From an uncultured archaeon (GTDB lineage Archaea; Asgardarchaeota; Hermodarchaeia; Hermodarchaeales; Hermodarchaeaceae), in NCBI GenBank assembly GCA_964347045.1, contig CAYFXC010000018.1, forward strand, positions 1 through 37,399: a stretch of DNA of 37,399 nt, written 5' to 3'. Of the stretch, positions 1,467 to 37,397 are shown piece after piece. Position 1 is the first letter of the stretch, and each line of letters begins with the position of its first letter. The notes beneath the pieces were generated by a model. It did not search any database and was not told the DNA's origin. It saw only the letters and a list, made by a program, of their open reading frames with translations. The position numbers were made by a program, and so were the translations under genes.

Positions 1467-1505
1467 CGGGTTCGGCGAGCAGAGAAAAAGCTTGGTCGAG
1501 TAGTG

Positions 1506-2714: not shown

Positions 2715-2828
2715 TTCCGTAACTATCGGCACTTTCCAATTTATCCGTAAATTGGTCTAGACAACTGAGGTGAAAAGCTTTTTTAGCTTGAGATTCGTCT
2801 CTCCTTTTCACCACGTTGGTTCGGATGT

Positions 2829-17942: not shown

Positions 17943-17958
17943 AATTTCTCACCTTGAT

Positions 17959-20195: not shown

Positions 20196-20381
20196 GGCAA
20201 TACATGTCTCCTGGCGTTCAATGGGACTTTACCCGCATCCCGCAGTGTAGTTGCTTTTCAATCTTTGCATTTACACTGCATTGGCGATACTCTGAGTCCT
20301 TAGATATGAAGAGTTCCTGCGAATCCTCCATTTTTCTGATTAATTGCTCCTAACGATGAAAATAGTTTTTTTCAAATTGAT

Positions 20382-21572
20382 TTATGAGAAAGCAGCTATA
20401 ACTTTCCGTCCAATTTCTTGACCATAGTCAAAGCAACGCTTTAAATCTTCTTCGCTCGGGCGGAACTGCACATCCAAGGGGTCTAATACTTCACCAAAAT
20501 TAAAGTCCTTTAACTGCTGAGTGAGAACCCTCGTGGCTCCACCACCCCAACCATATGATCCAAAAGCTGCGCCAATCTTGTTGTCTGGTCGTAAATGTTT
20601 CAAGTAGGGCATAAACGCTGCAGTTGGATAATAGGGGTCAATATTGTAGGTCATCGCCCCCACGACCACAGCCTTTGCTTCCATAGCTGCGCCTTGAACT
20701 CGGCTGAGAGGTTCGCGTTCCAAATCATAAACCTCTGCAGGAACTCCTACATTCGAGATCCCTTCCCGAATCATAAGCGCCATTCGCTTGGTGCTATTCC
20801 AGATCGTCGAATAAACAATCACAGCTCGTTTCTGTTCTGGATTACTTGACCAGCGGTGATAAATTTCTATAATTCGCTCGATGTTTTTTCGCCAAATTGG
20901 TCCATGAGAGGGACAAATAATTTTGATGGGAATCCCCTCTACCTTTTTAAAGGCGTTTAATACCGCTTTTGCATTAAATCGAACAATATAGCTATAATAC
21001 GCTCGAAGGGGTTCATACCAATCTTCAAGCTGGTCAGCGAACCGGTACGGCGTCGCAATCTGCATCCCAAAGGCATCGTTACTAAAGACTAGCTGTTCTT
21101 CAGCCAGATAGCTTATCATGGTTTCGGGCCAATGTACCATCGGAATTTTCACAAAGGTCAATGAGCGTTTGCCCAAGCTGAGAGTACCTCCGTCTTCCAC
21201 GATTTCAACTGGAAATTCAACACCAGGATAATTTAGCTTCAGGAATTCTGCACCCTTCTTAGAAGTGATAATTTTCGCCTTTGGTGCTGCTTCAATCATT
21301 GCTACATATGAGGTTGAGTGGTCCGGCTCAACGTGCTGACAAATAATATAATCAATCTTGGCAGGGTCAATAATCGTGCGGATACGGTTTAGTAGTTCTT
21401 CAGTGAAGTTAGGAGCCACCGTGTCAATCAGAGTAACTTTCTCATCAACGATTAGGTATGCATTGTAAGTGCCGCCTTTGGGAGTCCAGAGGCCATGGAA
21501 GTCTCGAAGCATCCAGTCAATTGCACCCACCCAAAAGACACCTTTCACAATCTCAACTTTTTCAGAGGTCAA
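20382..21572 (-). CDS. fprA: Flavodiiron protein (FprA, class A)
   Basis: GGTYNAYLI, LIDTV, HVEPDH, PMVHWPE, NDAFG, PSHG; flavodoxin domain with FGSYGWGG; GGAGG RBS before TTG. Confidence 0.95.
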   Translation of the reverse strand: MTSEKVEIVKGVFWVGAIDWMLRDFHGLWTPKGGTYNAYLIVDEKVTLIDTVAPNFTEELLNRIRTIIDPAKIDYIICQHVEPDHSTSYVAMIEAAPKAKIITSKKGAEFLKLNYPGVEFPVEIVEDGGTLSLGKRSLTFVKIPMVHWPETMISYLAEEQLVFSNDAFGMQIATPYRFADQLEDWYEPLRAYYSYIVRFNAKAVLNAFKKVEGIPIKIICPSHGPIWRKNIERIIEIYHRWSSNPEQKRAVIVYSTIWNSTKRMALMIREGISNVGVPAEVYDLEREPLSRVQGAAMEAKAVVVGAMTYNIDPYYPTAAFMPYLKHLRPDNKIGAAFGSYGWGGGATRVLTQQLKDFNFGEVLDPLDVQFRPSEEDLKRCFDYGQEIGRKVIAAFS

Positions 21573-21712
21573 ACGAAACCCTCCATTTTGTTAGTCAAAT
21601 CGTAGCAGCTAGTCTACCCAGTCTCTTTAATTATTTTTCATTTTCTTTACTAGGCAGAAACCTTATGGGAACTGGTATACCAAATCCTAATGTTCGACTT
21701 GGAGTTTTTGCC

Positions 21713-23131
21713 ATGAAACGATTACTGAATCCCAAATCTATCGCAATCATCGGTGCCTCCACGAATATTACTAAAATGGGCTCACTTATCACCTTTAATG
21801 TCCGTTCCGGAGGCTATGAAGGCGAAGTTTACCCTATCAATCCTAAAGCGGATAGCGTGCATGGCTACAAAGCCTATCCTAGTATTCTCGACTGCCCCAC
21901 ACCTGACGTGGCTTCCATTATTGTGCCCAAATCTACCGTTCCCGAGATTCTTGACCAATGCGCCCAAGCGGACATCCGTAATATCATTTTGGTTACAGCT
22001 GGTTACCGAGAAATAGGACCTGAAGGAAAAGCCGCAGAAGAGGAAATCAAAGCCATTGCCAAACGTCACCAGTTCAACCTTGTTGGCCCCAACTGTGTGG
22101 GTATCAGCCGACCTGCATTGAAACTCAACCTTACCACAATGCCCTACTTTCCACGACAAGGACCTGTAGCCTTCGTTTCGCAAAGCGGTGCATTTGCGGC
22201 CCAAAATTTTCTCTCTATTGAACGTTGGGGTCTTGGTTTAAGTACTGTTATTAGCACCGGCAACGAAGCCGTTCTTACCTGCACCGACTACATACGTCTT
22301 CTCGTCAACGATCCGGAAACCCAAGTCATACTACTGTACATTGAAGGCTTCAACGATGGTTCCCGATTTCTTCAAGCAGCCAAAGAAATTACACCAAAAA
22401 AACCGATTCTTCTTATGAAGGTGGGACGCACTCGCCAGGGGCAACGTGCCGCGATTTCTCATACTGGGGCACTTGCAGGGAGTATTGATGTTTTTCACGG
22501 AGCTATGCGACAAGCCGGAGTTATTCTTGGAAAAAGTCTCGAAGATCTATTTGATTGGGCGATGGCCCTTGGACACCAACCCCTTCCTAGGGGCAATCGT
22601 GTGGCTATCCTGACTAATTCTGGAGGACCTGGAGTATCCTTAACGGATGTCTGTGCTGAAGAAGGGCTCATCATTCCACCACTTCACGAAGACGTCCAAC
22701 AAAAGCTTCGTGCCTTTCTCCCTCCTACTGCTGTAACTGGAAATCCTGTCGATAGCACTTTCACCATTAACATGCGGATCTTCTCCCAATGTGCAGACAT
22801 TCTCCTCGGTCTCGATGAAATCGACTCCCTCCTCATTCATGGTTTCTTTGGACCTGACCTCATGAATCAATTCCGCCAAAGATATGATGTTCCTCAAGAT
22901 ATGGTCAATGTTTTGTATAACGAGTTCGGCGACGCTGCCAACCAGCTAATTTCCACGATTCGCCAATATAAGAAACCCGTGCTCATCTCTTCAACACAGG
23001 ATCGAAGTGATTCGGCTATTCAAGCAATCCAAGATGCCGGTATCCCCGTGTACACTATGCCTGAACGCGCCGCACTAACCCTAGGAGTCATGACGCGGTA
23101 TGCCCAATGGTGCAAATTCCATTGCACTTAA
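21713..23131 (+). CDS. acdA: ADP-forming acyl-CoA synthetase / acetate-CoA ligase alpha subunit
   Basis: LLNPKSIAIIGAS, YPINP, GPNCVG, SQSGA, STGNEA, LYIEG, phospho-His SHTGALAG, TNSGGPG, NPVD. ATG 21713 chosen (21665 possible); no beta subunit in window. Confidence 0.92.
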   Translation: MKRLLNPKSIAIIGASTNITKMGSLITFNVRSGGYEGEVYPINPKADSVHGYKAYPSILDCPTPDVASIIVPKSTVPEILDQCAQADIRNIILVTAGYREIGPEGKAAEEEIKAIAKRHQFNLVGPNCVGISRPALKLNLTTMPYFPRQGPVAFVSQSGAFAAQNFLSIERWGLGLSTVISTGNEAVLTCTDYIRLLVNDPETQVILLYIEGFNDGSRFLQAAKEITPKKPILLMKVGRTRQGQRAAISHTGALAGSIDVFHGAMRQAGVILGKSLEDLFDWAMALGHQPLPRGNRVAILTNSGGPGVSLTDVCAEEGLIIPPLHEDVQQKLRAFLPPTAVTGNPVDSTFTINMRIFSQCADILLGLDEIDSLLIHGFFGPDLMNQFRQRYDVPQDMVNVLYNEFGDAANQLISTIRQYKKPVLISSTQDRSDSAIQAIQDAGIPVYTMPERAALTLGVMTRYAQWCKFHCT

Positions 23132-26100
23132 CTTTCATCTGCCGATTGTTTTAAGGAGAAGTAGGTCGCCTGTCGTTCCTCTTTTGATAAATACTTCAAG
23201 TGGTCAACTAATGCCTGCTTTTCTTCGTCAGAAAGTCCTGGAATCTTATCCAGTTCACGGCGAATTTCAATCTCCACGCCTGAGGGAACCTCTGGCGTTA
23301 CTCGCTCCTCGGGAGGTACAACCGTGGGGGCGGTGCGGTCACCTTCTAAAGCTTTCTCCGGTGGTGGCGGTTCAACCGGTTTCACTTCATCAAGAGGCTT
23401 GGCCGGTGGTTCTTTGGCGGGTTTTTTCGTAGGTTTCATAGGTGGTTTCTTAGTGGGTTTCAGTTCAGGCTTGATAGCGGGTGGAGCTTTCTCACGCTTT
23501 GTTATGAAATCCATTCGTCGTTCACTCATCTGACGACGCAAATCATCTAAAAACCAGATTCGATCCTTTCGAGGAATCTTGCGCATCTCTTCGGCAAGAA
23601 CCGCTTTTTCTTCAGCACCTAGCCCTGGAATCTTATCCAACTCAGCTACGATGTCTTCTTCGGTGGCAGTAACCTCTTCGAGTTCTTCAATCGTTGGTAT
23701 CATCGCAGGAGTCATGACAACCCCAATAGTTGACATCGCTGAATCAACTTTGCCCTCTAATATCACTCCGCGTTCATGGAAATGCTTCAAATCCTTTCTA
23801 CCTAGCGAATAAGTTTCATCCTTTTCCACAGTTTTCGCAAGTTTCCGCATCCTTCGAACTTCCCACGGAATAGACAAGACACGGGCCCACAGTATCCAAC
23901 CAATTAATATGAAGATAAGGAAAATTGCGGCAATAGTTCCACCGATTGTGCCATAAACAAAGAGGGGATGGTACACAAATTCAAGTATAACCTCGGTTTC
24001 TAGACCTGTTTCCTGATATGGAACAGGAATTCCTTTGTTTGCACTAATTCGTAACTCCAAAGTAATCGGGGTAGCAGATCGAAGTCCGTATAGCAAGTAA
24101 TAACCATTACCTTCTTCAATCCATCCTCCCTCGGGACCCGCGGGATCAAAGTCCCAGCCTTGAGGTAGAGTAATGTTTGCTCCTTCAATGCCAACACGAT
24201 GCCAAGTATCAAAGAAATAAACTCGAATCTGGAAGGGTGAGCCAATATAGAGCTGTTCAAATGGGTACTCCGGGGGTGTAGGTACAATACCGATAATTTC
24301 ATCAACAGTTAATCGTGTTGGAATTTCAATGGCTGTAAATGTATCTGGGTAAATTTGACTCAAGAAATTCGCTTTACCAAGTCGAATAGAAAGTGAGTGT
24401 GATCCAATTCCAACCGTAATTGGATCAATATAGAGTTTCAATAGGTATAGATTCGTTGAATTATCAAATTCAACTGGAATTCCGGATAATATTACTCCAT
24501 CAAGGGTGATTGTTCCAGACCCATTGGCAACTAAGAACCCATCAACATCGCGGTAATCAAAGTAGATGTAGATCCAGTCACCCACGGGAACTGTGAGCAC
24601 ACCACCTTCGTAAGCTGACCGATTATATTCAATAATATCATCTATAACAAGAATCGACCAGGCAGAAAAGACTGTCACAGGACGCGTAGAGCGATCTATG
24701 ATGTCAATTGTAATGGTGGTTCGCTGAACATCAAATGCACCTTTTAGATCCACATAAAGTGAGTAAGAGAATCCTGCCGCTTGTGTTGCTGTAAATTGTG
24801 CCCAGTACCAACCATTCCCTAATTCATTTAATGACACCTGTTGACCGCCCCAAGTAGCCAAAATTAAAGCACCAGTAATATTCCGATCGAGGATTCCAGA
24901 CCTTGTATTATTAGCAAAAATCCAGAGCGTGAAGACTTCCTGATATTCATAAGTCATGAAATATGATTCGTTTTCAAAGGATGGATAGTCAATATCAAAA
25001 GCGAGCACTTCAGCGGGGGTATAACGTACATCAGCTGTAAACGATAGTGTTCGTCTCTGTACATTCGGTGATTCTGCACTCACAGAAATCTCATAGGGAA
25101 CAGTAACGAGATCGCTAGATGTATCTACTCCCCAAATTGATGAATCGTAGTAGTAGATACCTGGATACAGTGCTGGATCTAGCTCGATTAGGTAGGGAGA
25201 TCCGAATCCGATGGCTGGATCTGCACAGAAGAAGGTTACATTGGCTCCAATAATCGGAACCCCTGCTCCAGTGGTGAAGTTGACATAAATGATGATGTCT
25301 TCGGGTGGATACACTAAGAATGATGTTGTACAATTATAGGTGGTTAGTATGCTAGGCCCCGCAGTTATCGTATATGTTACATATGTCGTTGCATCCTGAT
25401 AGAATCCGGCTTTTGATGCTTGGATTGATAAGGTGTATTGGCCAATGGTGTATTCTGATTGGATTTCCAGCTGATAAACACCAGCTCCAATAAATACAAA
25501 GTTGAGTGTGCCATGAGCCCAAATGCAATCAACTTGAGAATCATTTACTAAGTCGCCTTGATGTAACCCTGCTCCGATTTTGACTGTAACCTCAATTATC
25601 TCATAGGGTGTTTGACCGTAGAAGCGTGAGATTAGACCTAGAGATTCGAGGGTAATATCGAGAGGAACTTCATAAATATAGACTGGAACTGAAATGTTTT
25701 GGAAAAGGAAATTAGTTTGGTTAGCAAATATGTATATCGAAAATCCCTGTAGCGCTGGAACGCCTGCAGTGTTTAGTTCAATTTGCCACCAATATTGCTT
25801 TGGCCCTGATGAGATTTGGCTAATCGTAACTCCGACAAATCCTGTTACCTGGATATTCACGGTTGTGGGGATATTGGGAACGTGGTTATTGTTATCTAAA
25901 TCAAAATATCTCACTATTAGAGTAAGATTCTCTCCGTAGTAAAGGTTACCAGGAGGATCGTAACTGAGGATTGTTTCAATTTCTCGAACTTCTTGTAATA
26001 CTGGTCTATTGGTTTTCGATTCAAAGAAAGGGTCAAGACCTTTGGGGTAAGTCACATTAACATAGAATAGGTAGGTACCAATTCCCGCTAGCTTTGTTGT

Positions 26101-29100
26101 ATCAATGGAGATTTCATAGAACCCTTGACCTAAATCAGTGACCCACCAATCACTACCGTAGGTTCCAAAACTAGGTAATTCCTCACAAAGTAGAGTTATG
26201 CTAATATCAGGATAATATGTGCTGTTTATCCCCATTCCTTCGATAGTTTGAAAGAGAAATTCAAAGGTCATAGTTGAATTCCAAGGTGTGGCACCCGCAG
26301 TTGGTTGTAGGACAAATTCTGTTCGTTGTCCTACAACATAGGCTCGGAATTCAAATTCTTGTGTCTCAAAATAAGGTATGGTTCCTCCTTCCCAACTTAC
26401 TTCAAGTTTGAAGTCAAAGAAGGTGTTTACTCTGCCAAAATAATCGGCATCTATTCTGAGTTGAAAATCATAATCTCCTGTAATCGAAACGATGTACCAC
26501 GCATTAAATGGAATTAGCACAGGCAAAGCAGGAGTAGTGTTATAAAGAACGACTAGAACGTGATTTCCACCAAAAGATGTGTTCGTTATCGAGAATGTCC
26601 GAAGTTGATCCGAATAGGTGAAGTTCACGGTAATTTCTGTAAGGTACCCATATTCGCCTGTTATGGTGTTTTGGATGCTTGTTGGTCGCTCTACGACAAA
26701 GAGTGTCACTTGTTTAGTTTGAATAGCATATGGTGGTGGGAATTGTGCCCAATCAGTATTTATTGTGGCTAAATAAGTACTGGGGGCACCCACACCTGTT
26801 GAATTAATGACAATATCATAAATGCCACTACCTAATGGAATAACAGAATAGAGTCCCGGATATTCCACTAATTCGATGATTGATTCCTGTCCATCAATAC
26901 CCTGTCCATTGATGGAGCTGTCAGGGTCGTTAACAGTATAGGTGATACGGATCGTAAAGTTATCTAGGAAGGCTTGGGCATCAACTGGTTCAACAGCTAA
27001 TGCCGTGAAGACTGTACGGACGTTGAAGGTGAGTTCAGGAATCGTATCATTTTCATAACCACTCCCGGAGCCTGAAATACGTATCATGATTTTATAGGCT
27101 TGGATGGCGGTGACTTCGGAGGCATTGATGGTGATTCGATATATCGATAATATTCCATCCCATTCCCACCAAATTACTGTGGGGTTAAATCCATCAAGCC
27201 CTGTAACATTAATCGTTTCGCTTCCAGTGTGAATTGGGTCTTGATTCAGCGAGCTTTCTCCGTCAAGAACGATATATTCAACTTCAATTGTAACATTATC
27301 CCCAAAGGGTGTAATAGGCACCGTTGTTGGATGTAACCAAGTGAATAAGGCACGAACAGAGAGGGGGACAGCATCTAATTGACCAACTTCATATTCCTCG
27401 GCTCGTGTTATGGTAATATCAAATTGGAATTCTTTTACTTCGGTGAGAATCGAGCTGTAGAATGTGATGTTATACTTCCCATTTTCCCAATAGACGAAGT
27501 TAAAGTCCACGCCTAAAGTTAGGTCTGTAATCGAAATGGTTCCACCAGTTATTGGACTATTGTCTTGAACTGCTGTGGGGTCATCAACTAGAAAGGTGAC
27601 AATAAGTATGCCATTTTCTCCCCAAGGAACAACTGGAGGGCTTTGGTAGGTGAAACTAGTGGCAAGAGAACGAATAGTTAATTGGGTTAATACAACTCCG
27701 TTGCCATATTCAGCTGAGGTTGTAACATCGAATTGAAGAGCATAGGTGTCAAGACTCCAACCAGAGACATCTAAGATGATTTGGTAGATGCCATCATCTG
27801 CAGTTCCGTTATTAACCCAAAGATGCCAATTTGAGCTGTCAAGAGTGATGGTTGAGGGTCCACCCGTGATAACCACAGAGGTTAAGTGATTCTCTGGAAG
27901 CCCTGAAGGCGGAATTAAATCGCTATCATTTACTCGTAAAATGATAGAAATGTTGTTTCCATAGGGAACTCGGGGTATGGGATCTACGTCCGCAGTGATG
28001 GAGTGCACTCTAATTATGATGTTCACGGTTCCAAATCCGGTAGCAAATCGAGGATCATTAGCAAACACAGTGACATTTAATTCATGTAATCCCCGCCCCC
28101 ATCCCGTTGCATCAATATAGAAATCAAGATACGAGAAATTCGACCATGGGAGCGTGGGTGCAGATGGACCAGAAATTTGGGTAACACGAACTTCTTGAAG
28201 ATAGGTTCCTGAGTCGATGGCTGAGCCTTTATCCAAGTCAATCCAACTGATATTAAGGAGGAATGATCCACCTTCAGGAACAGGTGCAGGTCCAGTTACT
28301 AAAACATAGACGCGGTGGCCACGAATCGTTAATTCATTGAAAGTACTATTGGAATCGGCATAGATTTGTGCAGGTATAGTTTTTGCTACGACTTCAATAG
28401 TTATTGAATAAGGCGAACCAACTATCGTTAAACTCGATGTATCCAATTCAAAGGTCCAACTGGTAGGATTGTTAATTGTTTTTGATACGTCACCAGAGAT
28501 TATGATTTGAGCCGCCGCCGTATATGAGATGTATCCTGTTGTTGAGAGGTCCACCCATTGAATAGTTATAGTTGTGTTCTCACCCCACGGGGTAGGTTCG
28601 GGTGGAAGAATCGTCACCGCCGTCTGATGTATAATTATCAGCACAGTAACTGCTGAGGCGGTTTGATTATAGACTCCCGGAGGATCATCAGGAATTATTG
28701 TTAGAATCAGATTATACTCGCCTGGAACCCATGTATCGGTCACCAACGTAATAGTCCAAGAACTCGGAGTGAAGATTTGCGGGTCTCCATATCCAGTGAC
28801 ACGAACTTGGAAAATGTCAGTAATGAGAGGATCAGTTCCACCATCAAGGTCATACCAACTAAATGTAATCGAAGTATTTGCTTGGTAGGGTATTTGCGCT
28901 GGAGGGATGACGATGACTTGGGTTAACCGTTTGCGAACACTGAATACTATAGTGCGACTTGCGCTTTGATAATCATCAGTTGTATCATCAATAGTAATTA
29001 CGAATGTATAGGAATCAACCTGAGTTATTGCTGACGAATAGATAGTGATAGCATATTCACCACTCCCAATTTCTTGCCAACCGAAAGTGGCGTATGGCGC

Positions 29101-31986
29101 CCCATTAAGTGTACAGCTGACATCTGTGTCGATTATTGATGTAATTCCTGTTGATGGGAAATATACTGGGTCATCGATTTCATAATAAACAGTTACCACC
29201 ATGTCATTGCCCCAGGGCTCTGGGCTAGGCGGGTCATAGCTTATTGTAGTTCCAATCTCACGGACAGAGACACTTACATCAACAGACCGATTGCCATAGA
29301 AGGGTGTATTATCTGGGCTCCCATACCAATAGAAGTAAACTTTGAAGTTGTAATTTCCAACCGCTGGTAAATAACTTGTATCAATGCTAATGTTCCAGAC
29401 ACCGGCTGACCCACTAAAGGTCACTGTAGCCATCGTTGGATTCCATTGAGTCGTTCCACGCATCACGTGAAGATGCAATTTATTTGTGCTATTATTGGGG
29501 GGTGTGCCTCCGTCAAGATCAGAAAGCGTGACGGTGAAGTTGGAACGTGCTCCGTAGGGAACGGAACTCGGCGTAGTTGAAGTAAGGAGCGTATTGCGAG
29601 CGCGGATAACAATGGTCAAATTTATCGCTTGTGCTTCATAATAGGTCCCAGGATCATCAACTGCCACAGTTAGCGTGTACGTCCCTGGGAGTGGTTTTAC
29701 ACTTGTTGGTACCTGGACATCGTACCATCCATTGGAACCGCCAGGAGTGATTGAGGTTCCTGACCAGCTGGGTGTCGTAAACCATCCAGCGGCGCCGGTT
29801 ATCCCTTGGTTATTTGCATCCTCATAGAAGACTTGAATAGTAAAAGTCTCAAGATAGTACGCAGTATATCCTGGCGTCGCTGATGAAAGAGTTGTATCGG
29901 TGCGTACATGGAGGTTAATATTACAAGTTGCAGGTATAGGGTCATGATAGGTTTCATTGGCTGTGACCGTTAGAATGTAATCTCCCGTTAATAGAAGGTT
30001 ATTAGAGATTTTTGCTTCATACCAACTACCCGCCTGGTAAAATGTAATGGTATTGCCATCAACACTACCCGTAACATTGGGAGTAATAATGAAAGGATTC
30101 GTGGCTTTGTCAGTATCGTTAAAGTAAACACGAGGATAGAAGAATCCGGGTCCTCGATTTACATTCATCGACGACGCTTCTGGGGTCAAAGTCGACGCAT
30201 GAATGAGGTTGAACTGACTAGAAAAGAAACCAGCGGCAGTCGGTGGAACCAAGACTCCATCATCATAGCTAATACAAAGGATATATTGTCCAGCTGGATA
30301 GGAGTCTCCATTATTGAAGTTAACTGTGAAACCAACTGATGCGCCCGCTGGTTTCGAATCCTCAGCTCTAACAATACCATCATAGTCATACAGGGTTAGG
30401 TTGACCTCTCCTGTTGTTTTAGAAAGACTAACGGTGATAGAGAGTGTGGAAGGACTTCGGGGGTTTATGTAGTAGGTGGGTTGGACTCCACTTACTGCTG
30501 TGACGCGGTTTGGAGAGCTTAGGGTAAAGTTCCACCAGCCATAAACAGTTCCAATTGTACTTGGTGAGAGTCGCAGGTGTGTTCCGTCATCGGTGACAGC
30601 AGTTGTTTTATCTTCAGATAAGGCATTCCAAATCTGATTTTTAGACCAGGTTTCACTGGTAGGTTTCGTTATGGATAGATTGTATTGTTGATAAACACCT
30701 GGTATTGGATTCGCCACATAAAACCAAGTTGTCCAATAGACATTCGACGATCCTTGACTAACCGAAAAGGTGGTTCCATCAGGTCCAGTTTGTTGTTCGG
30801 TTGTACTCGTTTTATTCACAAAGAAATTAAGCGTGTAATCAAAAGCTACGTCTTTACTTGCGGTGGCTGTCGTATTCCAGATGGCTTGAAGCTGATAGGT
30901 CGTTGATCGACTAGGCCAGCCACCTACTGGTGTGAGTGAAACGGTTCCCGTGCCATAACTTGCCCCATTCGCAACTGCTGTATTATTGAGTTGTAACCCG
31001 ATTGTGGAATCTGCAGGTTGCGCTTTACCTTGCACCTCAAATTGAACGTTATCAAACCAGAGCGCCCACGCCTGAATATTACTAGTAAAATCAATGATAA
31101 AACCTAAACCAAGTTTTAGGTTTAGCGAACCCGGAGCACCCCACTGGATAATGTCGTTATATGGGATAGGTAGCACAATCGTTACCCAATCGGAATCATA
31201 ATTTCCTTCTCCAATGGCAGGCAAATAATAGTCAACAGTTAGCAGATAGGCTTTGCCTCCGAGTTCAACATAGATAGCAAGTTCATCGCGATCCCAATAA
31301 TTCGGCTTGGTGCCAAAAGGATTATGATCCACTTTCACATCAAAGGTGAGTCGCGCCCAGTCCGGTTCTCGTGTCAAGGTGAATGTTTGCTGAAAGGCTG
31401 AATAATCTGTAGTTTGAAAAGAAATTCCGGTGGAATAGTTAATCCACACTCGGACGCCATTTCCTGATCGTCCGTAACTTGTGCTCCAATTTCCCCCATG
31501 ATAGGGATCACTGACTTGAGCTCCAAGCCCATTTGAGGTGTAACTCCAATCGGTCCAAGTATCTTCAAAATCTCCATTCCGTGTGTCTGGATCAATCCAG
31601 GTATTATTATCAAACAAATTCGAAACAGCAGCAGTAAGTTGGTAGCCATCCCATCTGACCGGATGCGTAATTTCTCCAATATTATTTGACCCATAATCTA
31701 AATCCAGCACACTCGATGAATTCACACCATATGCGAACTCATTAGTTTCAAGACCAGATCCCAAACCAGTGTAGAGATACTCATTATCTTCATAGGTGGG
31801 ACCTTCAGGTAAGGGAATCGGATTTGTGGAAATCAGGGCTGTCTGCGTATTTGCAGCGATAAAACTTCCATTATCTAGGGAACCCATAGGTACGCTTTGG
31901 ATTCCACTCAGCGGTGTAATCACAAACAAGGGAGAAAAGACAAACAAAACAAAAAGAGTAAGACCGAGTAAAGTTTCACGTTTCAT
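23128..31986 (-). CDS. Giant (2952 aa) type I membrane surface protein: signal peptide, jelly-roll-like N-terminal region, about 20 Ig-like repeats, one TM helix, ~250-aa cytoplasmic tail
   Basis: N-terminal MKRETLLGLTLFVLFVFSPLFVIT; recurring ~100-115 aa units (P[WY]GxNxT...Y.D.D...I...GxGxY.I.I...Y.F.I...Y...VR...T); many NxS/T sequons; TM ~23888-23965; charged and Pro-rich tail. Confidence 0.92.
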   Translation of the reverse strand: MKRETLLGLTLFVLFVFSPLFVITPLSGIQSVPMGSLDNGSFIAANTQTALISTNPIPLPEGPTYEDNEYLYTGLGSGLETNEFAYGVNSSSVLDLDYGSNNIGEITHPVRWDGYQLTAAVSNLFDNNTWIDPDTRNGDFEDTWTDWSYTSNGLGAQVSDPYHGGNWSTSYGRSGNGVRVWINYSTGISFQTTDYSAFQQTFTLTREPDWARLTFDVKVDHNPFGTKPNYWDRDELAIYVELGGKAYLLTVDYYLPAIGEGNYDSDWVTIVLPIPYNDIIQWGAPGSLNLKLGLGFIIDFTSNIQAWALWFDNVQFEVQGKAQPADSTIGLQLNNTAVANGASYGTGTVSLTPVGGWPSRSTTYQLQAIWNTTATASKDVAFDYTLNFFVNKTSTTEQQTGPDGTTFSVSQGSSNVYWTTWFYVANPIPGVYQQYNLSITKPTSETWSKNQIWNALSEDKTTAVTDDGTHLRLSPSTIGTVYGWWNFTLSSPNRVTAVSGVQPTYYINPRSPSTLSITVSLSKTTGEVNLTLYDYDGIVRAEDSKPAGASVGFTVNFNNGDSYPAGQYILCISYDDGVLVPPTAAGFFSSQFNLIHASTLTPEASSMNVNRGPGFFYPRVYFNDTDKATNPFIITPNVTGSVDGNTITFYQAGSWYEAKISNNLLLTGDYILTVTANETYHDPIPATCNINLHVRTDTTLSSATPGYTAYYLETFTIQVFYEDANNQGITGAAGWFTTPSWSGTSITPGGSNGWYDVQVPTSVKPLPGTYTLTVAVDDPGTYYEAQAINLTIVIRARNTLLTSTTPSSVPYGARSNFTVTLSDLDGGTPPNNSTNKLHLHVMRGTTQWNPTMATVTFSGSAGVWNISIDTSYLPAVGNYNFKVYFYWYGSPDNTPFYGNRSVDVSVSVREIGTTISYDPPSPEPWGNDMVVTVYYEIDDPVYFPSTGITSIIDTDVSCTLNGAPYATFGWQEIGSGEYAITIYSSAITQVDSYTFVITIDDTTDDYQSASRTIVFSVRKRLTQVIVIPPAQIPYQANTSITFSWYDLDGGTDPLITDIFQVRVTGYGDPQIFTPSSWTITLVTDTWVPGEYNLILTIIPDDPPGVYNQTASAVTVLIIIHQTAVTILPPEPTPWGENTTITIQWVDLSTTGYISYTAAAQIIISGDVSKTINNPTSWTFELDTSSLTIVGSPYSITIEVVAKTIPAQIYADSNSTFNELTIRGHRVYVLVTGPAPVPEGGSFLLNISWIDLDKGSAIDSGTYLQEVRVTQISGPSAPTLPWSNFSYLDFYIDATGWGRGLHELNVTVFANDPRFATGFGTVNIIIRVHSITADVDPIPRVPYGNNISIILRVNDSDLIPPSGLPENHLTSVVITGGPSTITLDSSNWHLWVNNGTADDGIYQIILDVSGWSLDTYALQFDVTTSAEYGNGVVLTQLTIRSLATSFTYQSPPVVPWGENGILIVTFLVDDPTAVQDNSPITGGTISITDLTLGVDFNFVYWENGKYNITFYSSILTEVKEFQFDITITRAEEYEVGQLDAVPLSVRALFTWLHPTTVPITPFGDNVTIEVEYIVLDGESSLNQDPIHTGSETINVTGLDGFNPTVIWWEWDGILSIYRITINASEVTAIQAYKIMIRISGSGSGYENDTIPELTFNVRTVFTALAVEPVDAQAFLDNFTIRITYTVNDPDSSINGQGIDGQESIIELVEYPGLYSVIPLGSGIYDIVINSTGVGAPSTYLATINTDWAQFPPPYAIQTKQVTLFVVERPTSIQNTITGEYGYLTEITVNFTYSDQLRTFSITNTSFGGNHVLVVLYNTTPALPVLIPFNAWYIVSITGDYDFQLRIDADYFGRVNTFFDFKLEVSWEGGTIPYFETQEFEFRAYVVGQRTEFVLQPTAGATPWNSTMTFEFLFQTIEGMGINSTYYPDISITLLCEELPSFGTYGSDWWVTDLGQGFYEISIDTTKLAGIGTYLFYVNVTYPKGLDPFFESKTNRPVLQEVREIETILSYDPPGNLYYGENLTLIVRYFDLDNNNHVPNIPTTVNIQVTGFVGVTISQISSGPKQYWWQIELNTAGVPALQGFSIYIFANQTNFLFQNISVPVYIYEVPLDITLESLGLISRFYGQTPYEIIEVTVKIGAGLHQGDLVNDSQVDCIWAHGTLNFVFIGAGVYQLEIQSEYTIGQYTLSIQASKAGFYQDATTYVTYTITAGPSILTTYNCTTSFLVYPPEDIIIYVNFTTGAGVPIIGANVTFFCADPAIGFGSPYLIELDPALYPGIYYYDSSIWGVDTSSDLVTVPYEISVSAESPNVQRRTLSFTADVRYTPAEVLAFDIDYPSFENESYFMTYEYQEVFTLWIFANNTRSGILDRNITGALILATWGGQQVSLNELGNGWYWAQFTATQAAGFSYSLYVDLKGAFDVQRTTITIDIIDRSTRPVTVFSAWSILVIDDIIEYNRSAYEGGVLTVPVGDWIYIYFDYRDVDGFLVANGSGTITLDGVILSGIPVEFDNSTNLYLLKLYIDPITVGIGSHSLSIRLGKANFLSQIYPDTFTAIEIPTRLTVDEIIGIVPTPPEYPFEQLYIGSPFQIRVYFFDTWHRVGIEGANITLPQGWDFDPAGPEGGWIEEGNGYYLLYGLRSATPITLELRISANKGIPVPYQETGLETEVILEFVYHPLFVYGTIGGTIAAIFLIFILIGWILWARVLSIPWEVRRMRKLAKTVEKDETYSLGRKDLKHFHERGVILEGKVDSAMSTIGVVMTPAMIPTIEELEEVTATEEDIVAELDKIPGLGAEEKAVLAEEMRKIPRKDRIWFLDDLRRQMSERRMDFITKREKAPPAIKPELKPTKKPPMKPTKKPAKEPPAKPLDEVKPVEPPPPEKALEGDRTAPTVVPPEERVTPEVPSGVEIEIRRELDKIPGLSDEEKQALVDHLKYLSKEERQATYFSLKQSADES
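23131..23643 (-). repeat. Duplicated ~40-aa helical module (ELxKIPGL-xx-EEK) flanking a Pro/Lys-rich linker, tail of giant protein 1
   Basis: Copy 1 (23527-23643) ELDKIPGLGAEEKAVLAEEMRKIPRKDRIWFLDDL; copy 2 (23131-23256) ELDKIPGLSDEEKQALVDHLKYLSKEERQATYFSL; linker contains KPTKKP twice. Confidence 0.85.
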
Positions 31987-32134
31987 ATTGGTTACCCCCG
32001 GGTTGGAAGGCGGCAGAAGAATGCAAATACGAGCCTATTACGAGATTTGAACAAGTTTCTCCAGTTCTGAGTCAGATACCTAGTGGTCGATTCCGTTATG
32101 TCGCCAAACCGATATTTTACCGGACTATTGACGC

Positions 32135-32149
32135 TTTATATAGGTTTAC
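32135..32149 (-). promoter_or_regulatory. BRE/TATA promoter for the 2952-aa gene
   Basis: Minus strand GTAAACC-TATATAAA about 150 nt upstream of ATG 31986. Confidence 0.5.
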
Positions 32150-32174
32150 CTGCACTGTCGTCTAACCAAATAGG

Positions 32175-32221
32175 AAAAAAAGGAGATCGAATCCCTAAGC
32201 TCCCAAAGGCGCATAGGGATT
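32175..32221 (-). terminator. Hairpin plus T-tract terminator after the second giant gene
   Basis: AATCCCTA/TAGGGATT inverted repeat (32190-32221) just after the stop, followed on the minus strand by T7 (32175-32181). Confidence 0.6.
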
Positions 32222-32228
32222 TCAATGG

Positions 32229-35200
32229 TTATTCGTCCATGTCCGCAGACATGCGTAACGACCGATATGTGGACTGCCGCTCCTCTTTACTCAGGTATTG
32301 CAAGTGATCGACAAGAGCATCCTTCTCTTCTTCTGAAAGCCCTGGAATCTTTGATAGCTCGCGGCGAATTTCAGCAATCACCGCAGGTGCGGCACTAGGG
32401 GTAGGTTGAAGTTCCGGTGGCAACACCGTCGGGGCTGTTCGGTCTTTGGTTTTGGGTTTCGAAGGGGGTGGTTCTTTGGGTTTCACTTCTTCTAGTGGTG
32501 GCGGTTCGGGTTCCTTGGGTGGCGTTACTGTTGGAGCTGGTTCGGGTGTTGGTTTAGGAGTTGGTTCCTTGGGTTGTTCGCGTTGGGTGAGGAAGTCCAT
32601 GCGGCGCTGGCCCATTTGACGGCGCAGGTCATCGAGGAACCAGATTCGGTCTTTGCGAGGAATCTTGCGCATTTCTTGAGCGAGGACAGTTTTTTCTTCG
32701 ATGCCCAGCCCAGGAATCTTATCAAGTTCAGTCATGATGTCTTCTTCTGTGGCCGTGACTTCTTCAACTTCTTCCGTGGTGGGAATCATCGCTTTTGTGG
32801 CCGCGACTCCAATAGTACCCATGGCTACGGTCATTTTGGACTCCATGGTGTTTTGGCGTTCTTGGAAGCGTTTCCGATCTTTCTTGGAAAGTTTATAACC
32901 TTCACTTTTTTCCACGGTTTTGGCTAGTTTCCGCATTCGACGGACCTCCCATGGAATTGAGTACACCCGGGCATACATAATCCAGCCAATCAACGCAATC
33001 ACAAGAATTACCACCCCAAATGATCCAGCCTGGATGAGCATGTTCATGAGCGGTGTATTCTCAATTGATACAACGAAATTCTGTTGCGCGTTTTGATAAT
33101 TTTGCCTAGAGAAGGTGAAAGCTAAGGATCCCGAACTGGGTGCATTTGCCACGAGAGTTACATTGTAAAAACCTCGATGAAGTGGATCTGGATCTACGGT
33201 GATTGTTGTTCCTGCTGGAAGAGAACCGGAAAGGAGGCTGTCAATCTCTGCGTCTAAGATGCCATCGTCATGATAAATATCGCTAAAGAACAGTGAAAAT
33301 GTGTAAGTCGTTCCAACATACAATATATCTGGAATTACCCAATCATGAATGAGTTCGGTTGGGATGTCTGTTACCTGAAGCGTCCGTGTTATCACTTGGT
33401 TAATGTAGTTGTTTGATTCAAAGTTAATTTCTAACGGACCAGAATCTGTAGCATTCAACAGGAAATAAATTGTCCAATAACCACTGACCGGGTCATAGAC
33501 GAAGTATTCAGCTCCAAAGAAGCGAAGATAGGCACTTCGAACTTGGGTATCGGATAAGGTGATGTTCGAAATATCTCGGTACCAGAAAGTTAGCACCAAA
33601 GTATCACCAATAGGGATAATCCAGGTACTGTCGGTAAAGGGAACGGTTACGTTGTAATCTCTGCCATCAATTGTAGCGAGCGTATAGGCGTGAACCAGTT
33701 CGAGTTCAGTCCGTCGTTCACTAATTGTCAAGAACACAGACTCGGAGGCGTCACCATACTTTCCAAAGACATCATGATAAATACGGATCTCAAGGGCAAG
33801 TGTACTCGGGGTTTCGTTGGCAATAAACCATCCCGTATACCAACCTGCGGTTCCATTTTCAGTCATATAATAAGGGACAGTTTGCCAAATGAAGTAGGGT
33901 ACATCTCCAGTGATTGGGGAATTCCCCGCCAGGAAGTCACCTAAATAGACATTCAGTGTCACATTCTCATTGTATTCATTGGATAGGGAGCTATACTCGG
34001 GGATAATTGTGATTGGTTTATATTGGACATTAATTGTGAAGGTGACTTGTCGTTGTACTGAATTTGCTGATGTGGCAACAACGATTATTGTGTGTGTTCG
34101 GATATTCCATGATGATGTATCAAATTGAATATAGTAGGAACCTGGTCCCGCAGGGATGAAATCACCTAAGTATATTGATACGTTATTTGCCTTGATGGTT
34201 GTGTTCGAACTCAATATTGGATACCAATGAGTCCCATTCCATCCTTCAAAGGTCACATTTAATTGCACAATATCATCTACAAAAACTGTTATCGCAGTTA
34301 TATCACCAGGTGGAAGTTCAAGGCGCGTGTCAATTTGAAGTATACTTACTGTATAAATGAGTAGACCCGTTTCGAAGTTAGTGATATTAGCTTTGATGAA
34401 AAGTTGAGTTGCTGTAGCATTAATTTTACCTGTATTTAGTGTAAGCGTATAATAACCAGGTGTTCCTGAGTAATTCATTGGAGCATAGGAGTAAGTCCAC
34501 CATTTGAAGTAAATTTCTGCAGTGATCATTGGTGTGCCAGTTAGACCATCTTCTAAGTAGACGTCAACAGTTATGGGTACAGCCCAATATTCTGAAATGG
34601 AAAATGTGGGAGGATTTACTGGAGTTAGGTTAACAGGCGCATATTTGATTTGTATGTCAATGTCTCGCTGTTGAGAGAGATAATTGGTTTTACTGGCGGT
34701 TAGATAAAAGGAGAAGGCTCCTGCAGGAGTCCCAGAGGTGTCAATTTCAATTATCCATGTTCCATTCGGAAGCTGATAATATGAGTAAGGATTGGGCACA
34801 TCAATGATCCAGGTAACGCCGGATACCGCACCTCCATGGTCAAGATCTATGTAATCTGCGAGAATTGTGAGGTTTTGGGAATGAAATACATCTGTGGACT
34901 GAGTCCAGTCCATTGTGGTTTGGATTTCTCGCACGCGACCTGAAACCAGAGTTTGGGCAGAGGCATAATAAGGGGCGTATTGCGGTAAGAAACCGGTGGG
35001 CCAGGTCAATGTTATGTTGAAGGTATAAGTTCCGATGTCAAGGTTCTTAGACCCTTCGATGATGAGGACATAATGCCCATCAATTCCCAATTGGGAGGCC
35101 AGAGTCACATACCAATAGGTATCATCCCAGGTGGGAATATCTGCACATAGAACTACTATTCCTACATTTCCTGAGGTGTTTGTGATGGGTAATCCGCCTG

Positions 35201-37397
35201 TAGTATTATAGTGTAAGGTGATAGTGATGTCATCACCGGTAGGTTGGGTGGCGATAGTATCTGAATAGAGTACTGTTTGGGTCCCAGTTGTGCGGACGGA
35301 AAAGTCTTTGAAGGCGGGTTCATAGAAGGGAACGTTTCCCCCGATCCATGACGCTTCAATCCTGAAACTATAAATCACGTTGACAGCGCCAAGTTCACTA
35401 GCGTTGATTAAGACTCGGAAATACAATGTGGGTTCATCCCAGCCTCCACTACCAGGATATGTCTCAACGAAATATGTTGCAGAAATCTCGCTATCATTTT
35501 CAGCAAACAGAATACGGATCCGAAGATAATTGCCAGTAGTGATATTATCGATTCCCCATCCACTGTAAACATCTGTATAGTTCAAATAGACAACAATAAA
35601 GTCTGCATAGTTGGTGTCTGGTGGGTTGGTGTTGATGATTCGGGTTTCGCGATCTGCAGATCGCAGCCAGACGCCGACCCATTGTTCTTCATAAATTGGT
35701 GGGCTTGCTGTCCAATTGAGGTCAACGCGGATCCAATATCGTCCCGGAGCGGGGGTCTCCGCTGAGTTGATGATGAGATAGTAGAATCCATTTCCAGCAT
35801 CAATGATCTCTAACACAACTGGAACAGCCCAGCTACCGTTGGTGGTAATGATGATGTTATCAACCCCGGGGATTCCATTTCCATCTTGGGAACTATCATC
35901 ATCGCGAACAGTATAGATGATGGTGATCGTGAAGTTTTCACCATAGGGAGCGGCATCGACTGGTTCCCGTTCAATTTCTGTAAACACGGTTCGAATGTTA
36001 AAGGACATGGCAGGGTTCGAGATACTGGCGTCGCGGTATCGACCGGTGGGGTGCGTGGCATCCACTTCGATTTGATAGCTCCCGATGGCTAGTGCTTTGG
36101 TAATGGTGATGCGGTAGTAGGTGGCAAATTCGGTGACCGAATAGTCGCTGGGAAGGATGGTGAGTCCGCCAATACCGATCACCGTGATGGTGGCTCCTGG
36201 AATAAAGGCACCATTATTGGAACTTTCCCCATCTAAGATGAGGTATTCCACATCAACTAAGACATTATCGCCATAGGGTGTGGTAGGAACCTGCGAGTAG
36301 GTGAGTGTGGTGAAGAGGTACCGAACAGTCATTGGGACTTTGTTTAGTTGTCCGTTGTTGTATTGGGCAGGGCTCGTTATGGTGATCGTCAAGTTATAAG
36401 TTGTAACTGAGGTAAGATAGCTTGCTAACACGGTGATGGTATAAGAGCCGTCTAGATTATTGGTATAGGTGAAATCTACGCCTTCGACTAACCCTGCAAT
36501 AGTAATTGTGCCAACAGTGATGGGATTTTCATCCTGAGATGCAACCGGATCTGAGACAAGATAGGTGACATTGAGTTCGCCATTTTCTCCCCATGCAACC
36601 ACAGGTGGGCTCTGGTAGGTAAAGCTAATGGCTAGGGCACGAATTGTCGCAGCGGTAAATACTGTGCTATTTTCATAGTTAGAGGAGGTGTAGACATGGA
36701 TGGTGAGTGAATGGGTGCTTAGTGACCATCCTGTCGTATCAAATCGGACTATGAAAATGCCATCATCGGCGGTTCCGTTGGTAACCCAGATGTTCCAATT
36801 AGCGGAATCAATGTATAGGGTCGTGGGGCCAATGATTTCGATAGCAATCATATCGATATCAGGGAGCGGTGTACCTTCGTCATCGTCATCCACTCGTAGA
36901 GTCAGGTTTCCGTCATTTTGCCAAGGAATTGTGGAAATGGGATCAATATCACTGGCAATATTGTGGTTTCGAATGCGAAAACCGATGGTTTGGTCTGCAT
37001 CTTCGTGAAAACTATCCGGTGCCACCACATGAAGGGCAAGAGAGTACACTTTCACTGTTGATATCTTTCCACTCGAGTAAAGGATTGTGAGAGTGTATTG
37101 TCCACCGCCATCATCCACAAGTAGATAATCCGCTGGGTTCAAGCCCACCCCATCTAGGGTGGAACCAACAATACTAGTAACTCCTGGTATACCAGTACCA
37201 TCTTCTCCACTAGCTGAGTCATCGACGATATAATAGAAGGTAATTACCACGTCTGTTCCCCACGCCACACTCCCTACGGCATCATATGATATCGCCGTTC
37301 GGATAGTGCGAATGTCAAAGCCCACATTACTAGCTGCATCCTCGTGTTGCGCATCCGGCGTATTCACATACAAGTAAAGAGCATAAGTCTTAATGGC
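32229..37397 (-). CDS. Second giant type I membrane protein, paralog of 23128-31986; N-terminus beyond window
   Basis: Frame stays open to the window edge (AIKTYALYLYVNT...). Collinear shared blocks (NGTADDGI, SFTYQSPPVVxWGENG, TPxGDNV, LDGESS, FNxRTVFT); TM ~32972-33045; highly similar cytoplasmic tail. Confidence 0.92.
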   Translation of the reverse strand, partial: AIKTYALYLYVNTPDAQHEDAASNVGFDIRTIRTAISYDAVGSVAWGTDVVITFYYIVDDSASGEDGTGIPGVTSIVGSTLDGVGLNPADYLLVDDGGGQYTLTILYSSGKISTVKVYSLALHVVAPDSFHEDADQTIGFRIRNHNIASDIDPISTIPWQNDGNLTLRVDDDDEGTPLPDIDMIAIEIIGPTTLYIDSANWNIWVTNGTADDGIFIVRFDTTGWSLSTHSLTIHVYTSSNYENSTVFTAATIRALAISFTYQSPPVVAWGENGELNVTYLVSDPVASQDENPITVGTITIAGLVEGVDFTYTNNLDGSYTITVLASYLTSVTTYNLTITITSPAQYNNGQLNKVPMTVRYLFTTLTYSQVPTTPYGDNVLVDVEYLILDGESSNNGAFIPGATITVIGIGGLTILPSDYSVTEFATYYRITITKALAIGSYQIEVDATHPTGRYRDASISNPAMSFNIRTVFTEIEREPVDAAPYGENFTITIIYTVRDDDSSQDGNGIPGVDNIIITTNGSWAVPVVLEIIDAGNGFYYLIINSAETPAPGRYWIRVDLNWTASPPIYEEQWVGVWLRSADRETRIINTNPPDTNYADFIVVYLNYTDVYSGWGIDNITTGNYLRIRILFAENDSEISATYFVETYPGSGGWDEPTLYFRVLINASELGAVNVIYSFRIEASWIGGNVPFYEPAFKDFSVRTTGTQTVLYSDTIATQPTGDDITITLHYNTTGGLPITNTSGNVGIVVLCADIPTWDDTYWYVTLASQLGIDGHYVLIIEGSKNLDIGTYTFNITLTWPTGFLPQYAPYYASAQTLVSGRVREIQTTMDWTQSTDVFHSQNLTILADYIDLDHGGAVSGVTWIIDVPNPYSYYQLPNGTWIIEIDTSGTPAGAFSFYLTASKTNYLSQQRDIDIQIKYAPVNLTPVNPPTFSISEYWAVPITVDVYLEDGLTGTPMITAEIYFKWWTYSYAPMNYSGTPGYYTLTLNTGKINATATQLFIKANITNFETGLLIYTVSILQIDTRLELPPGDITAITVFVDDIVQLNVTFEGWNGTHWYPILSSNTTIKANNVSIYLGDFIPAGPGSYYIQFDTSSWNIRTHTIIVVATSANSVQRQVTFTINVQYKPITIIPEYSSLSNEYNENVTLNVYLGDFLAGNSPITGDVPYFIWQTVPYYMTENGTAGWYTGWFIANETPSTLALEIRIYHDVFGKYGDASESVFLTISERRTELELVHAYTLATIDGRDYNVTVPFTDSTWIIPIGDTLVLTFWYRDISNITLSDTQVRSAYLRFFGAEYFVYDPVSGYWTIYFLLNATDSGPLEINFESNNYINQVITRTLQVTDIPTELIHDWVIPDILYVGTTYTFSLFFSDIYHDDGILDAEIDSLLSGSLPAGTTITVDPDPLHRGFYNVTLVANAPSSGSLAFTFSRQNYQNAQQNFVVSIENTPLMNMLIQAGSFGVVILVIALIGWIMYARVYSIPWEVRRMRKLAKTVEKSEGYKLSKKDRKRFQERQNTMESKMTVAMGTIGVAATKAMIPTTEEVEEVTATEEDIMTELDKIPGLGIEEKTVLAQEMRKIPRKDRIWFLDDLRRQMGQRRMDFLTQREQPKEPTPKPTPEPAPTVTPPKEPEPPPLEEVKPKEPPPSKPKTKDRTAPTVLPPELQPTPSAAPAVIAEIRRELSKIPGLSEEEKDALVDHLQYLSKEERQSTYRSLRMSADMDE

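Follow-up and report, generated by a model that had tools for sequence, protein, structure and literature searches.

Among the described surface systems, cadherins, protocadherins and the cell adhesion molecules of the immunoglobulin superfamily (IgSF CAMs) combine a tandem β-sandwich ectodomain with one transmembrane (TM) helix and a conserved tail carried on diversified ectodomains, and occur as tandem paralogs. Bacterial fibrillar and RTX adhesins have an Ig-repeat stalk of variable length and an exchangeable tip, and are retained by LPxTG anchoring or by a type I secretion plug. S-layer proteins of archaea, among them Nitrosopumilus SLP and Sulfolobus SlaB, are secreted, sequon-rich, multi-Ig proteins with a C-terminal membrane anchor. 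In Clostridium thermocellum, RsgI anti-sigma factors expose a variable carbohydrate-binding module (CBM) outside the cell on a conserved cytoplasmic domain, and the gene of the cognate partner, sigmaI, is adjacent. With regard to Asgard archaea, cultured members display large surface proteins by cryo-tomography and no S-layer, L. ossiferum being devoid of an ordered one (PMC9834061), and they crawl by regulated adhesion (10.1101/2025.11.30.690169). All of these systems share traits with the locus presented here.

The window, a stretch of 37,399 nucleotides from a Hermodarchaeia genome, contains two neighbouring genes, A and B, both on the minus strand, which agrees with the two co-oriented reading frames originally noticed. 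Their features are the following:

23128..31986, minus strand: gene A, a 2952-aa single-pass surface protein (open reading frame and hydropathy)
31891..31986, minus strand: hydrophobic N-terminal signal segment of A, residues ~1-32 (hydropathy)
31027..31611, minus strand: CBM-like β-jelly-roll tip of A, residues ~126-320 (AF2 model, structure match to CBMs)
23977..31026, minus strand: stalk of A, β-sandwich (Ig-like) domains with many N-x-S/T sequons (model and repeat homology)
23884..23967, minus strand: TM helix of A, residues ~2674-2701
23707..23883, minus strand: juxtamembrane (JM) module of A, an invariant Pro followed by a basic amphipathic helix and then by a second helix
23527..23664, minus strand: three-helix unit H1 of A, residues ~2775-2820
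23287..23490, minus strand: disordered Pro/Lys/Glu-rich linker of A (pLDDT below 50)
23143..23277, minus strand: three-helix unit H2 of A, residues ~2904-2948
32229..37397, minus strand: 3' part of gene B (1722 aa), which runs off the end of the contig
32970..33044, minus strand: TM helix of B (hydropathy)
32793..32969, minus strand: JM module of B
32613..32750, minus strand: three-helix unit H1 of B
32247..32381, minus strand: three-helix unit H2 of B

Thus, from the N- to the C-terminus, the layout consists of a signal peptide, a CBM-like tip, an Ig-like stalk, one TM helix, an amphipathic JM motif and two three-helix units. The contig break in B falls within a tandem array of ~113-aa repeats, and its 5' part, which encodes the signal peptide and the tip, corresponds to G000:C20:28301-32638, since synteny is continuous in G013:C28; the whole protein therefore comprises at least 1446+1722 aa plus the gap, i.e., more than 3,100 aa. 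In the A/B subfamily the Ig-repeat stalk varies in length (2,800-4,500 aa). A single C-terminal hydrophobic segment was found in each gene, followed by the anticipated tail of ~250 aa. A location of this tail in the cytoplasm, as had been proposed, fits the signal segment of A, the N-x-S/T sequons, which lie only N-terminal to the TM helix (57 in A and 32 in B, none C-terminal to it), and the K/R asymmetry, with no such residue in the 15 positions preceding the helix and nine in the 30 following it. In this respect A and B differ from archaeal S-layer and sortase-anchored proteins, which end shortly after their anchor, as their tail contains folded helical units.

The three near-invariant tail blocks reported from the first inspection of the sequence were all recovered with the same identity, although A and B are 69% identical over the whole tail, near-invariance being limited to those blocks. 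Differing codons amount to 10/18, 4/10 and 10/21 in the three blocks, and synonymous differences are saturated, both in the whole tail (pS 0.78, pN 0.23) and in the H1 block (pS 0.78, pN 0.09), which rules out recent gene conversion as the source of tail identity and bears out the purifying selection first suggested. In the comparison with G013, the JM is 88% identical to that of the syntenic gene, against 37% for the tip and 90% for HMG-CoA synthase, at an equal pS of ~0.7; the tail is constrained by purifying selection at the level of a housekeeping protein. A characterised anchoring domain has been discarded, since 25 tails gave nothing above the Pfam cut-off and a PDB sequence search with the tail gave no match. 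Fold searches with the tail model returned only non-significant three-helix and HhH matches (E > 2), such as the protein A B domain and RecR, or generic long helices, and an Atlas search gave no match, an outcome that does not establish a new fold.

Concerning the ectodomains, the statement that they align only in patches has to be corrected, as BLASTP yields one continuous alignment (A1300-2950 versus B117-1719, 35%), with 31% identity in the ectodomain alone and 21-61% per 100 aa. Their predicted Ig-like nature was upheld by the all-β AF2 model, which contains tandem β-sandwich folds (the stalk of A was modelled to residue 825, and the remainder is assigned by repeat homology), and by Foldseek matches of the tandem-Ig type, in which cadherins, titin and S-layer proteins are matched alike (TMq 0.12-0.22) in a generic, non-specific manner. 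No family was matched by Pfam in A and B at E 0.01, nor any cadherin-type family among 24 N-terminal homologs. The comparison with cadherins and protocadherins thus survives as an analogy only: the tandem β-sandwich is present but not specific, cadherin Pfam matches are lacking, and the Foldseek TM by query is at most 0.22. Unlike cadherins and IgSF CAMs, A and B also match no Ig-set Pfam family, their tail is unrelated to catenin-binding tails, their diversity comes from recombination among whole genes, and their tip is CBM-like.

This tip, modelled at pLDDT 86, matches the carbohydrate-binding modules 8zqf, 2zew and 8xmz with VIA Z of 11-12 (maximum 12.2) at 11-17% identity, a fold that suggests glycan binding. 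The combination of a repetitive Ig-like stalk with a distal domain of ligand-binding type, as judged from fold likeness only, is that of fibrillar adhesins, from which A and B differ in their C-terminal TM anchor with a structured tail and a dedicated partner. The tip is the most variable part of A and is swapped among paralogs. The trees of tips, stalks and tails are incongruent: AU tests reject the stalk-sister pairs when forced together in the tip tree (p 1e-67 and 2e-79), and a clade of A as defined by the stalk is incompatible with the tail tree (p 0.006). These conflicts indicate that the genes are mosaics, whose tips, stalks and tails have recombined among paralogs, a feature overlooked in the earlier reading, and the tail tree shows that an older tail exchange took place as well. 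Such mosaic tips suggest selection at the surface by partners or viruses.

It could be considered that these giant proteins form a loose coat, with the amphipathic helix lying on the inner leaflet, the helical units clustering the proteins, and the tail and its partner serving only to anchor, space, sort or export them, no signal crossing the membrane. The best Foldseek match of the N-terminal ectodomain is a Nitrosopumilus S-layer protein, although with a TM of only 0.15, the JM helix is strongly amphipathic (hydrophobic moment 0.63 versus 0.44 for the 99th percentile of the ectodomain), and the JM motif is likewise present at the end of short membrane proteins and as a link between two ectodomains in some Loki proteins. 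We regard this structural role as unlikely, taking into account that rapid tip exchange is more readily reconciled with ligand recognition or evasion than with a lattice, that an ordered S-layer is absent from cultured Asgards (PMC9834061), and that the partner is repeatedly associated with a small GTPase gene. The family also differs from S-layer proteins in its 250-aa conserved cytoplasmic tail, its six or more divergent paralogs and its mosaic tips.

The JM is the pan-Asgard portion of the tail, and it is the candidate docking site of the partner. The small helical units, which are found two or three in tandem on flexible linkers, are also found appended in a second family of receptors, whose tails are of the longin-winged-helix type, and would constitute a separate, mobile interaction module. 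Both traits could likewise suit a direct coupling of the tail to Lokiactin through these units, in the style of integrins or cadherins and independent of the longin partner, and actin-driven crawling does need adhesion (10.1101/2025.11.30.690169). This coupling seems highly improbable: the tail has no significant match to known actin-binding domains, conserved linkage to actin genes was not seen, and L. ossiferum, the very species shown to crawl, has tails devoid of the three-helix units.

The original prediction of one shared intracellular partner can now be given a specific candidate, on the basis of gene linkage, fusion and matching distribution, from which binding is inferred. This is a soluble protein of ~370 aa with a putative longin-like N-domain that begins with WD-x4-G, followed by winged-helix parts, in a layout like that of NPRL2, a eukaryotic GTPase regulator. 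In 20 diverse genomes with 66 full-length partner genes, 21 of these follow a tail match on the same strand, starting no more than 1 kb downstream of it (0.07 expected), and 44/66 lie within 15 kb of one (2.8 expected); direct adjacency was found in eight families, and 40/88 tail matches have no partner nearby. In addition, G199 and 37 of 38 long homologs carry in-frame TM-JM-partner fusions in which the start Met of the partner is lost; they form one Loki clade (53-93% identical), probably derived from a single event, and L150:2820-9104 is a natural fusion. The partner (G000:C11:9299-10768) adjoins a longin-Arf-like GTPase gene (G000:C11:8240-9109) in G000:C11, and a longin-GTPase gene likewise in L154, L156, L157 and L158; in L155 the genes for GTPase, partner and giant protein lie side by side. 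Of 18 Hermod relatives, 17 have a single partner match per genome. In the host, the partner gene is single-copy and located on a different contig from A and B, so the link between tail and partner is extrapolated here from other lineages.

The partner resembles NPRL2/NPRL3 (GATOR1) and the related longin GAP complexes FLCN-FNIP and C9orf72-SMCR8 in its putative longin-like N-domain, its winged-helix parts and the adjacent small-GTPase gene. Its N-domain matches Asgard longins weakly (HHalign probability 44%, E 2.4e-4), and Pfam gives no longin match and weak HTH/winged-helix matches. GAP longins are marked by a GP motif in the loop that joins strands one and two (PMC12290439). Unlike NPRL2-type GAPs, most partner members lack this motif: in the 12 aligned members, the residue after the conserved Gly is V, A, L or T instead of Pro. 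The partner also differs in its association with a giant surface protein, by gene linkage or fusion, and is not tied to lysosomes. Asgard NPRL2-like proteins have been described with fusions to two-component domains, not with this surface-protein linkage (Liu et al., 10.1101/2020.10.19.343400).

The winged-helix matches leave room for a sensor with transcriptional output, whose CBM-like tip would sense polysaccharides while the tail keeps a winged-helix regulator at the membrane until its release, as modelled on the RsgI-sigmaI pairs of cellulolytic clostridia. Loki genomes have one partner copy next to each surface gene, the partner paralog of G000:C11 sits within the same gene cluster, and the variable tip is in line with this function. 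Nevertheless, the partner copies of L. ossiferum are nearly identical to one another, leaving little output specificity, the permanent membrane fusion of one clade would make release dependent on proteolysis, and a single partner serves six Hermodarchaeia genes; on these grounds a transcriptional sensor is distinctly unlikely. RsgI itself has the opposite orientation to A and B, and no sequence similarity between them was found; nor is the partner a sigma factor.

The tail occurs in 303/400 Asgard genomes, cultured L. ossiferum included, and the host has six surface genes of the A/B type, in keeping with the anticipated multi-paralog family of Asgard type. The partner is present in 309/400, and the families negative for it are those negative for the tail, a co-absence that amounts to few independent losses; related genomes are not independent (in the L3 tree f4, f13 and f17 are joined, and f19 and f21 are not placed). 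Among these 400, most Heimdallarchaeum-block genomes yielded neither tail nor partner. As for the surroundings of A and B, the acetate-CoA ligase, flavoprotein and mevalonate genes are syntenic at genus level only and differ in Thor-like genomes, and have been set aside as conserved neighbours; no Rfam RNA was found in the window.

Taking all this into account, we lean towards the proposal that these proteins are giant Asgard adhesins or recognition proteins with a CBM-like tip, an Ig stalk and a JM that docks an NPRL2-like partner tied to an Arf-like GTPase. A and B would work as giant single-pass surface glycoproteins whose long stalk holds the tip off the cell, and the exchange of tips and stalk segments among paralogs would diversify the surface, glycan binding being suggested by the fold. 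The conserved JM would dock the longin-like/winged-helix partner, to which linkage and fusion point, and it is proposed that the tails are near-invariant because the six Hermodarchaeia surface proteins would share one unlinked partner, which would keep them under common constraint. In the weakest step, the partner probably ties the surface proteins to a longin-fused Arf-like GTPase as an adaptor or regulator, a role suggested by gene neighbourhood in several Asgard classes. A more far-reaching possibility, which we put forward tentatively and with some doubt, is that Asgards have an ancestral transmembrane signalling system of which these proteins form the receptor arm, and in which recombining glycan-recognition adhesins control an Arf-like GTPase via a tail-bound NPRL2-like adaptor. 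It would be the archaeal equivalent of signalling from adhesion receptors to small GTPases, retained by most Asgard classes and by cultured Lokiarchaea, whereas Heimdallarchaeia would have lost or replaced it.

Neither the tail family nor the receptor-partner module was found described in the literature searched, and these papers name no Asgard adhesion molecule or membrane-to-cytoplasm link. Since tail and partner were not found in most Heimdall-block genomes, the system is perhaps not ancestral to the adhesion receptors of eukaryotes, and its relevance to eukaryogenesis is limited accordingly. Many longin proteins and small GTPases of Asgard genomes lack a known input, and this family offers named candidates both for such inputs and for Asgard adhesion molecules. 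The L. ossiferum loci NEF87_000608/000609, 001536, 001534/001533 and 000854 make binding, localisation and GTPase regulation directly testable. The association of tail and partner would connect the cell surface with a GTPase switch, a connection open to experiment.

The window is the entire contig C18 of a 2.58 Mb genome that is 89% complete, and it carries two adjacent giant surface-protein genes, each encoding an ectodomain (tip and stalk), a transmembrane segment (TM) and a tail:

23128-31986, minus strand: gene A, 2952 aa
32229-37397: gene B, open at the contig end

Neither gene has a match in a Pfam search. The missing 5' part of gene B is C20:28301-32638, as deduced from synteny, since in a relative the genes found here on C20 and C18 follow one another without a break on a single contig, flanking both giant genes. 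The break between the contigs falls inside an array of repeat units, each about 113 aa long; judging by the 3522-aa homolog P0009, about three of them appear to be missing from gene B. The number of giant genes at this locus varies, with one in the relative G012, two in the relative G013 and two here; a family member elsewhere (G018:C29) has an open frame of 7129 aa.

The end of the acetate-CoA ligase gene (21458-23131), the convergent neighbour of gene A, overlaps the gene A stop, and directly downstream of the ligase lie an archaeal DUF35-thiolase-HMG-CoA synthase cluster and a flavodiiron-type protein (17358-21572). At 918-4838, a Rab-like GTPase (918-1466) precedes two co-oriented genes that lack a Pfam match; one encodes 403 aa and the other 669 aa, the latter including a T-rich stretch that is probably a membrane segment. 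Upstream of gene B (L040 and beyond, C20:14002-28037) are found a 718-aa longin-domain protein, a Cys-rich (zinc-binding-like) protein, a gelsolin-like protein, judged by eye (C20:19461-20435), and a small GTPase (C20:14002-14508), in an order kept within the genus only. Of the three family genes in tandem on contig C3, the first (L038:901-5207; C3:34900-39206) is split by an in-frame stop (36421-36423) and frameshifted beside a run of 10 N, its syntenic-type genes in relatives being intact (about 1420-1450 aa); it is either an assembly artefact or a pseudogene.

The sequons of A and B (57 and 32, respectively) all lie before the TM, with 0 after it, and positive charges flank the TM on the tail side only. 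Thus, the tail lies inside the cell, as the original prediction had it. Some Loki proteins with a TM on each side of the juxtamembrane module (JM), and an ectodomain-like region beyond each, agree with this topology. In the Loki-like P0112, P0135, P0142, P0147, P0152 and P0157, a second hydrophobic segment and another ectodomain-like region come after the JM, as in a fusion of two surface proteins.

The tail consists of the JM, a three-helix unit (H1) of about 46 aa and, beyond a disordered Pro-rich linker, a second copy of this unit (H2). In the JM, one Pro is invariant and two Arg are nearly so, and its basic helix is strongly amphipathic. Within the window's genome, six family genes are the only carriers of the three-helix unit (two on C18, three on C3, one on C6). 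Loki-like genomes also have the unit attached to another receptor family, whose tails are of longin and winged-helix type; being found on both families, it is a mobile module. Members of this second family (L163:1917-6617, L164:2158-6846, L165:3237-6497) run in the order ectodomain, TM, longin, winged helix, three-helix unit and TPR/MIT-like helices.

The conserved tail blocks singled out earlier are present, with codons differing at 10/18, 4/10 and 10/21 positions. The A and B tails differ with pS 0.78 and pN 0.23, and the shared ectodomain with pS 0.68 and pN 0.49. These codon differences and tail values bear out the predicted purifying selection, as opposed to recent gene conversion; the two tails are an old duplication under such selection. 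They are 69% identical (30-42% for other paralogs), a closeness owed partly to shared ancestry and old tail exchange. The ectodomains had been described as aligning only in patches, but A and B align end to end at 31-35%.

An AF2 model of A residues 55-825 is all beta-sandwich (pLDDT 86), and Foldseek with the ectodomain model returned generic tandem-Ig proteins at low TM-scores. In a full structural search, residues about 126-320 form a CBM-like jelly roll, best matched by an alginate-binding module (Z 12.2) and CBM16 (Z 11.7), from which we infer that the tip binds glycan. Identity between A and its syntenic counterpart in a congeneric genome is 37% for the tip, 42-68% for the stalk, 88% for the JM and 84% for H1; neighbouring enzymes show 76-90%, with pS near 0.7 throughout. 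The B tip is only 38% identical to the tip of B's best stalk match, though the stalks are 68-83% identical, whereas A-type genes elsewhere have tips that match it at 70-76%. AU tests rejected tip trees in which stalk-sister genes stay together, including a test with two full-length database proteins independent of the C18-C20 join (p 2e-79), and rejected tip-sister pairs on the stalk tree. Taking into account these conflicts and rejections, the A/B genes are mosaics that have exchanged tips, stalks and tails, although individual cases may be assembly chimeras.

The closest named contigs with the tail are from Hermodarchaeota and related Asgard MAGs. Searching 1.84 billion representatives with a profile of the Hermod tail gave 140 proteins; ten were sampled, and those with names are Thor-, Hel- and Lokiarchaeal. 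A broadened profile matched 303/400 Asgard genomes, usually several times per genome (four genes in L. ossiferum, three in H. repetitus); outside Hermod and Thor, many tails have the JM without three-helix units. Seven families have a match in only 4/83 genomes, and two further small families have none with this profile among the 400 genomes. In the L3 tree, two of the seven group with a third that probably includes Heimdallarchaeum; in this Heimdall block, most genomes lack a match to tail and partner.

This candidate partner emerged from neighbourhoods in cultured Lokiarchaea and one further Asgard genome, where a protein of about 370 aa is encoded right after the giant genes, its gene often overlapping their stop codon. 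Its profile matches 309/400 Asgard genomes, and the negative families are those negative for the tail. The three Heimdall-block genomes that have the partner (loci L128, L129, L130) carry it, in its Loki type, next to a tail gene on short contigs, likely because the bins were contaminated or both genes were transferred together. In 20 diverse genomes, including families absent from the profile seed, 21/66 full-length partners share the strand of a tail match and start <1 kb downstream of it, against 0.07 expected; 44/66 lie within 15 kb of a tail match, against 2.8 expected. In one Loki clade, ectodomain, TM, JM and partner form a single protein, the partner's start Met being lost. The intracellular partner that had been predicted for the shared tail thus has a specific candidate from co-distribution, linkage and fusion, and the JM probably binds it physically. 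Two L. ossiferum copies (L142:2139-3281 and L142:9652-10794) encode almost identical proteins beside very different surface genes.

The partner carries no existing annotation. The alignment of its N-domain to Asgard longins is weak, as are the winged-helix matches of its C-part; the layout is like that of NPRL2. Transcriptional output through these winged helices is a rival role. Asgard NPRL2-like and DENN proteins have been noted (Liu et al., 10.1101/2020.10.19.343400), the tail-partner linkage not being among them, and GP-motif longins have been tied to GAP activity (PMC12290439), whereas the partner lacks GP in most members. The window's genome has a single copy (C11:9299-10768), directly after a longin-fused Arf-like GTPase. 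This three-gene cluster (L149:7277-10768) starts with a paralog of the partner N-domain that has a different C-terminal part, and the candidate itself has a long charged helical tail. Four other families also have partner and GTPase side by side, and at one locus GTPase, partner and giant gene stand in a row; coupling to the GTPase is a tentative reading.

On the outside, these proteins may work like fibrillar adhesins. The proposed comparison with cadherin or IgSF receptors holds for overall design, but they did not pass a test with cadherin profiles. Nor are they S-layer proteins of the short-tailed kind; a structural anchoring role is a rival explanation, as is direct coupling of the tail to actin. 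No description of the tail family was found in the literature searched, of incomplete coverage, and this real Asgard surface-protein family, with its specific candidate intracellular partner, is apparently undescribed. With its architecture, tail selection, mosaic ectodomains and tail-partner co-distribution, linkage and fusion established, it is proposed that the tip would bind glycan outside the cell and the JM would dock the partner inside, which would couple the surface proteins to a small GTPase. One unlinked partner serving six surface proteins in Hermodarchaeia would be a simple reason for their near-invariant tails.
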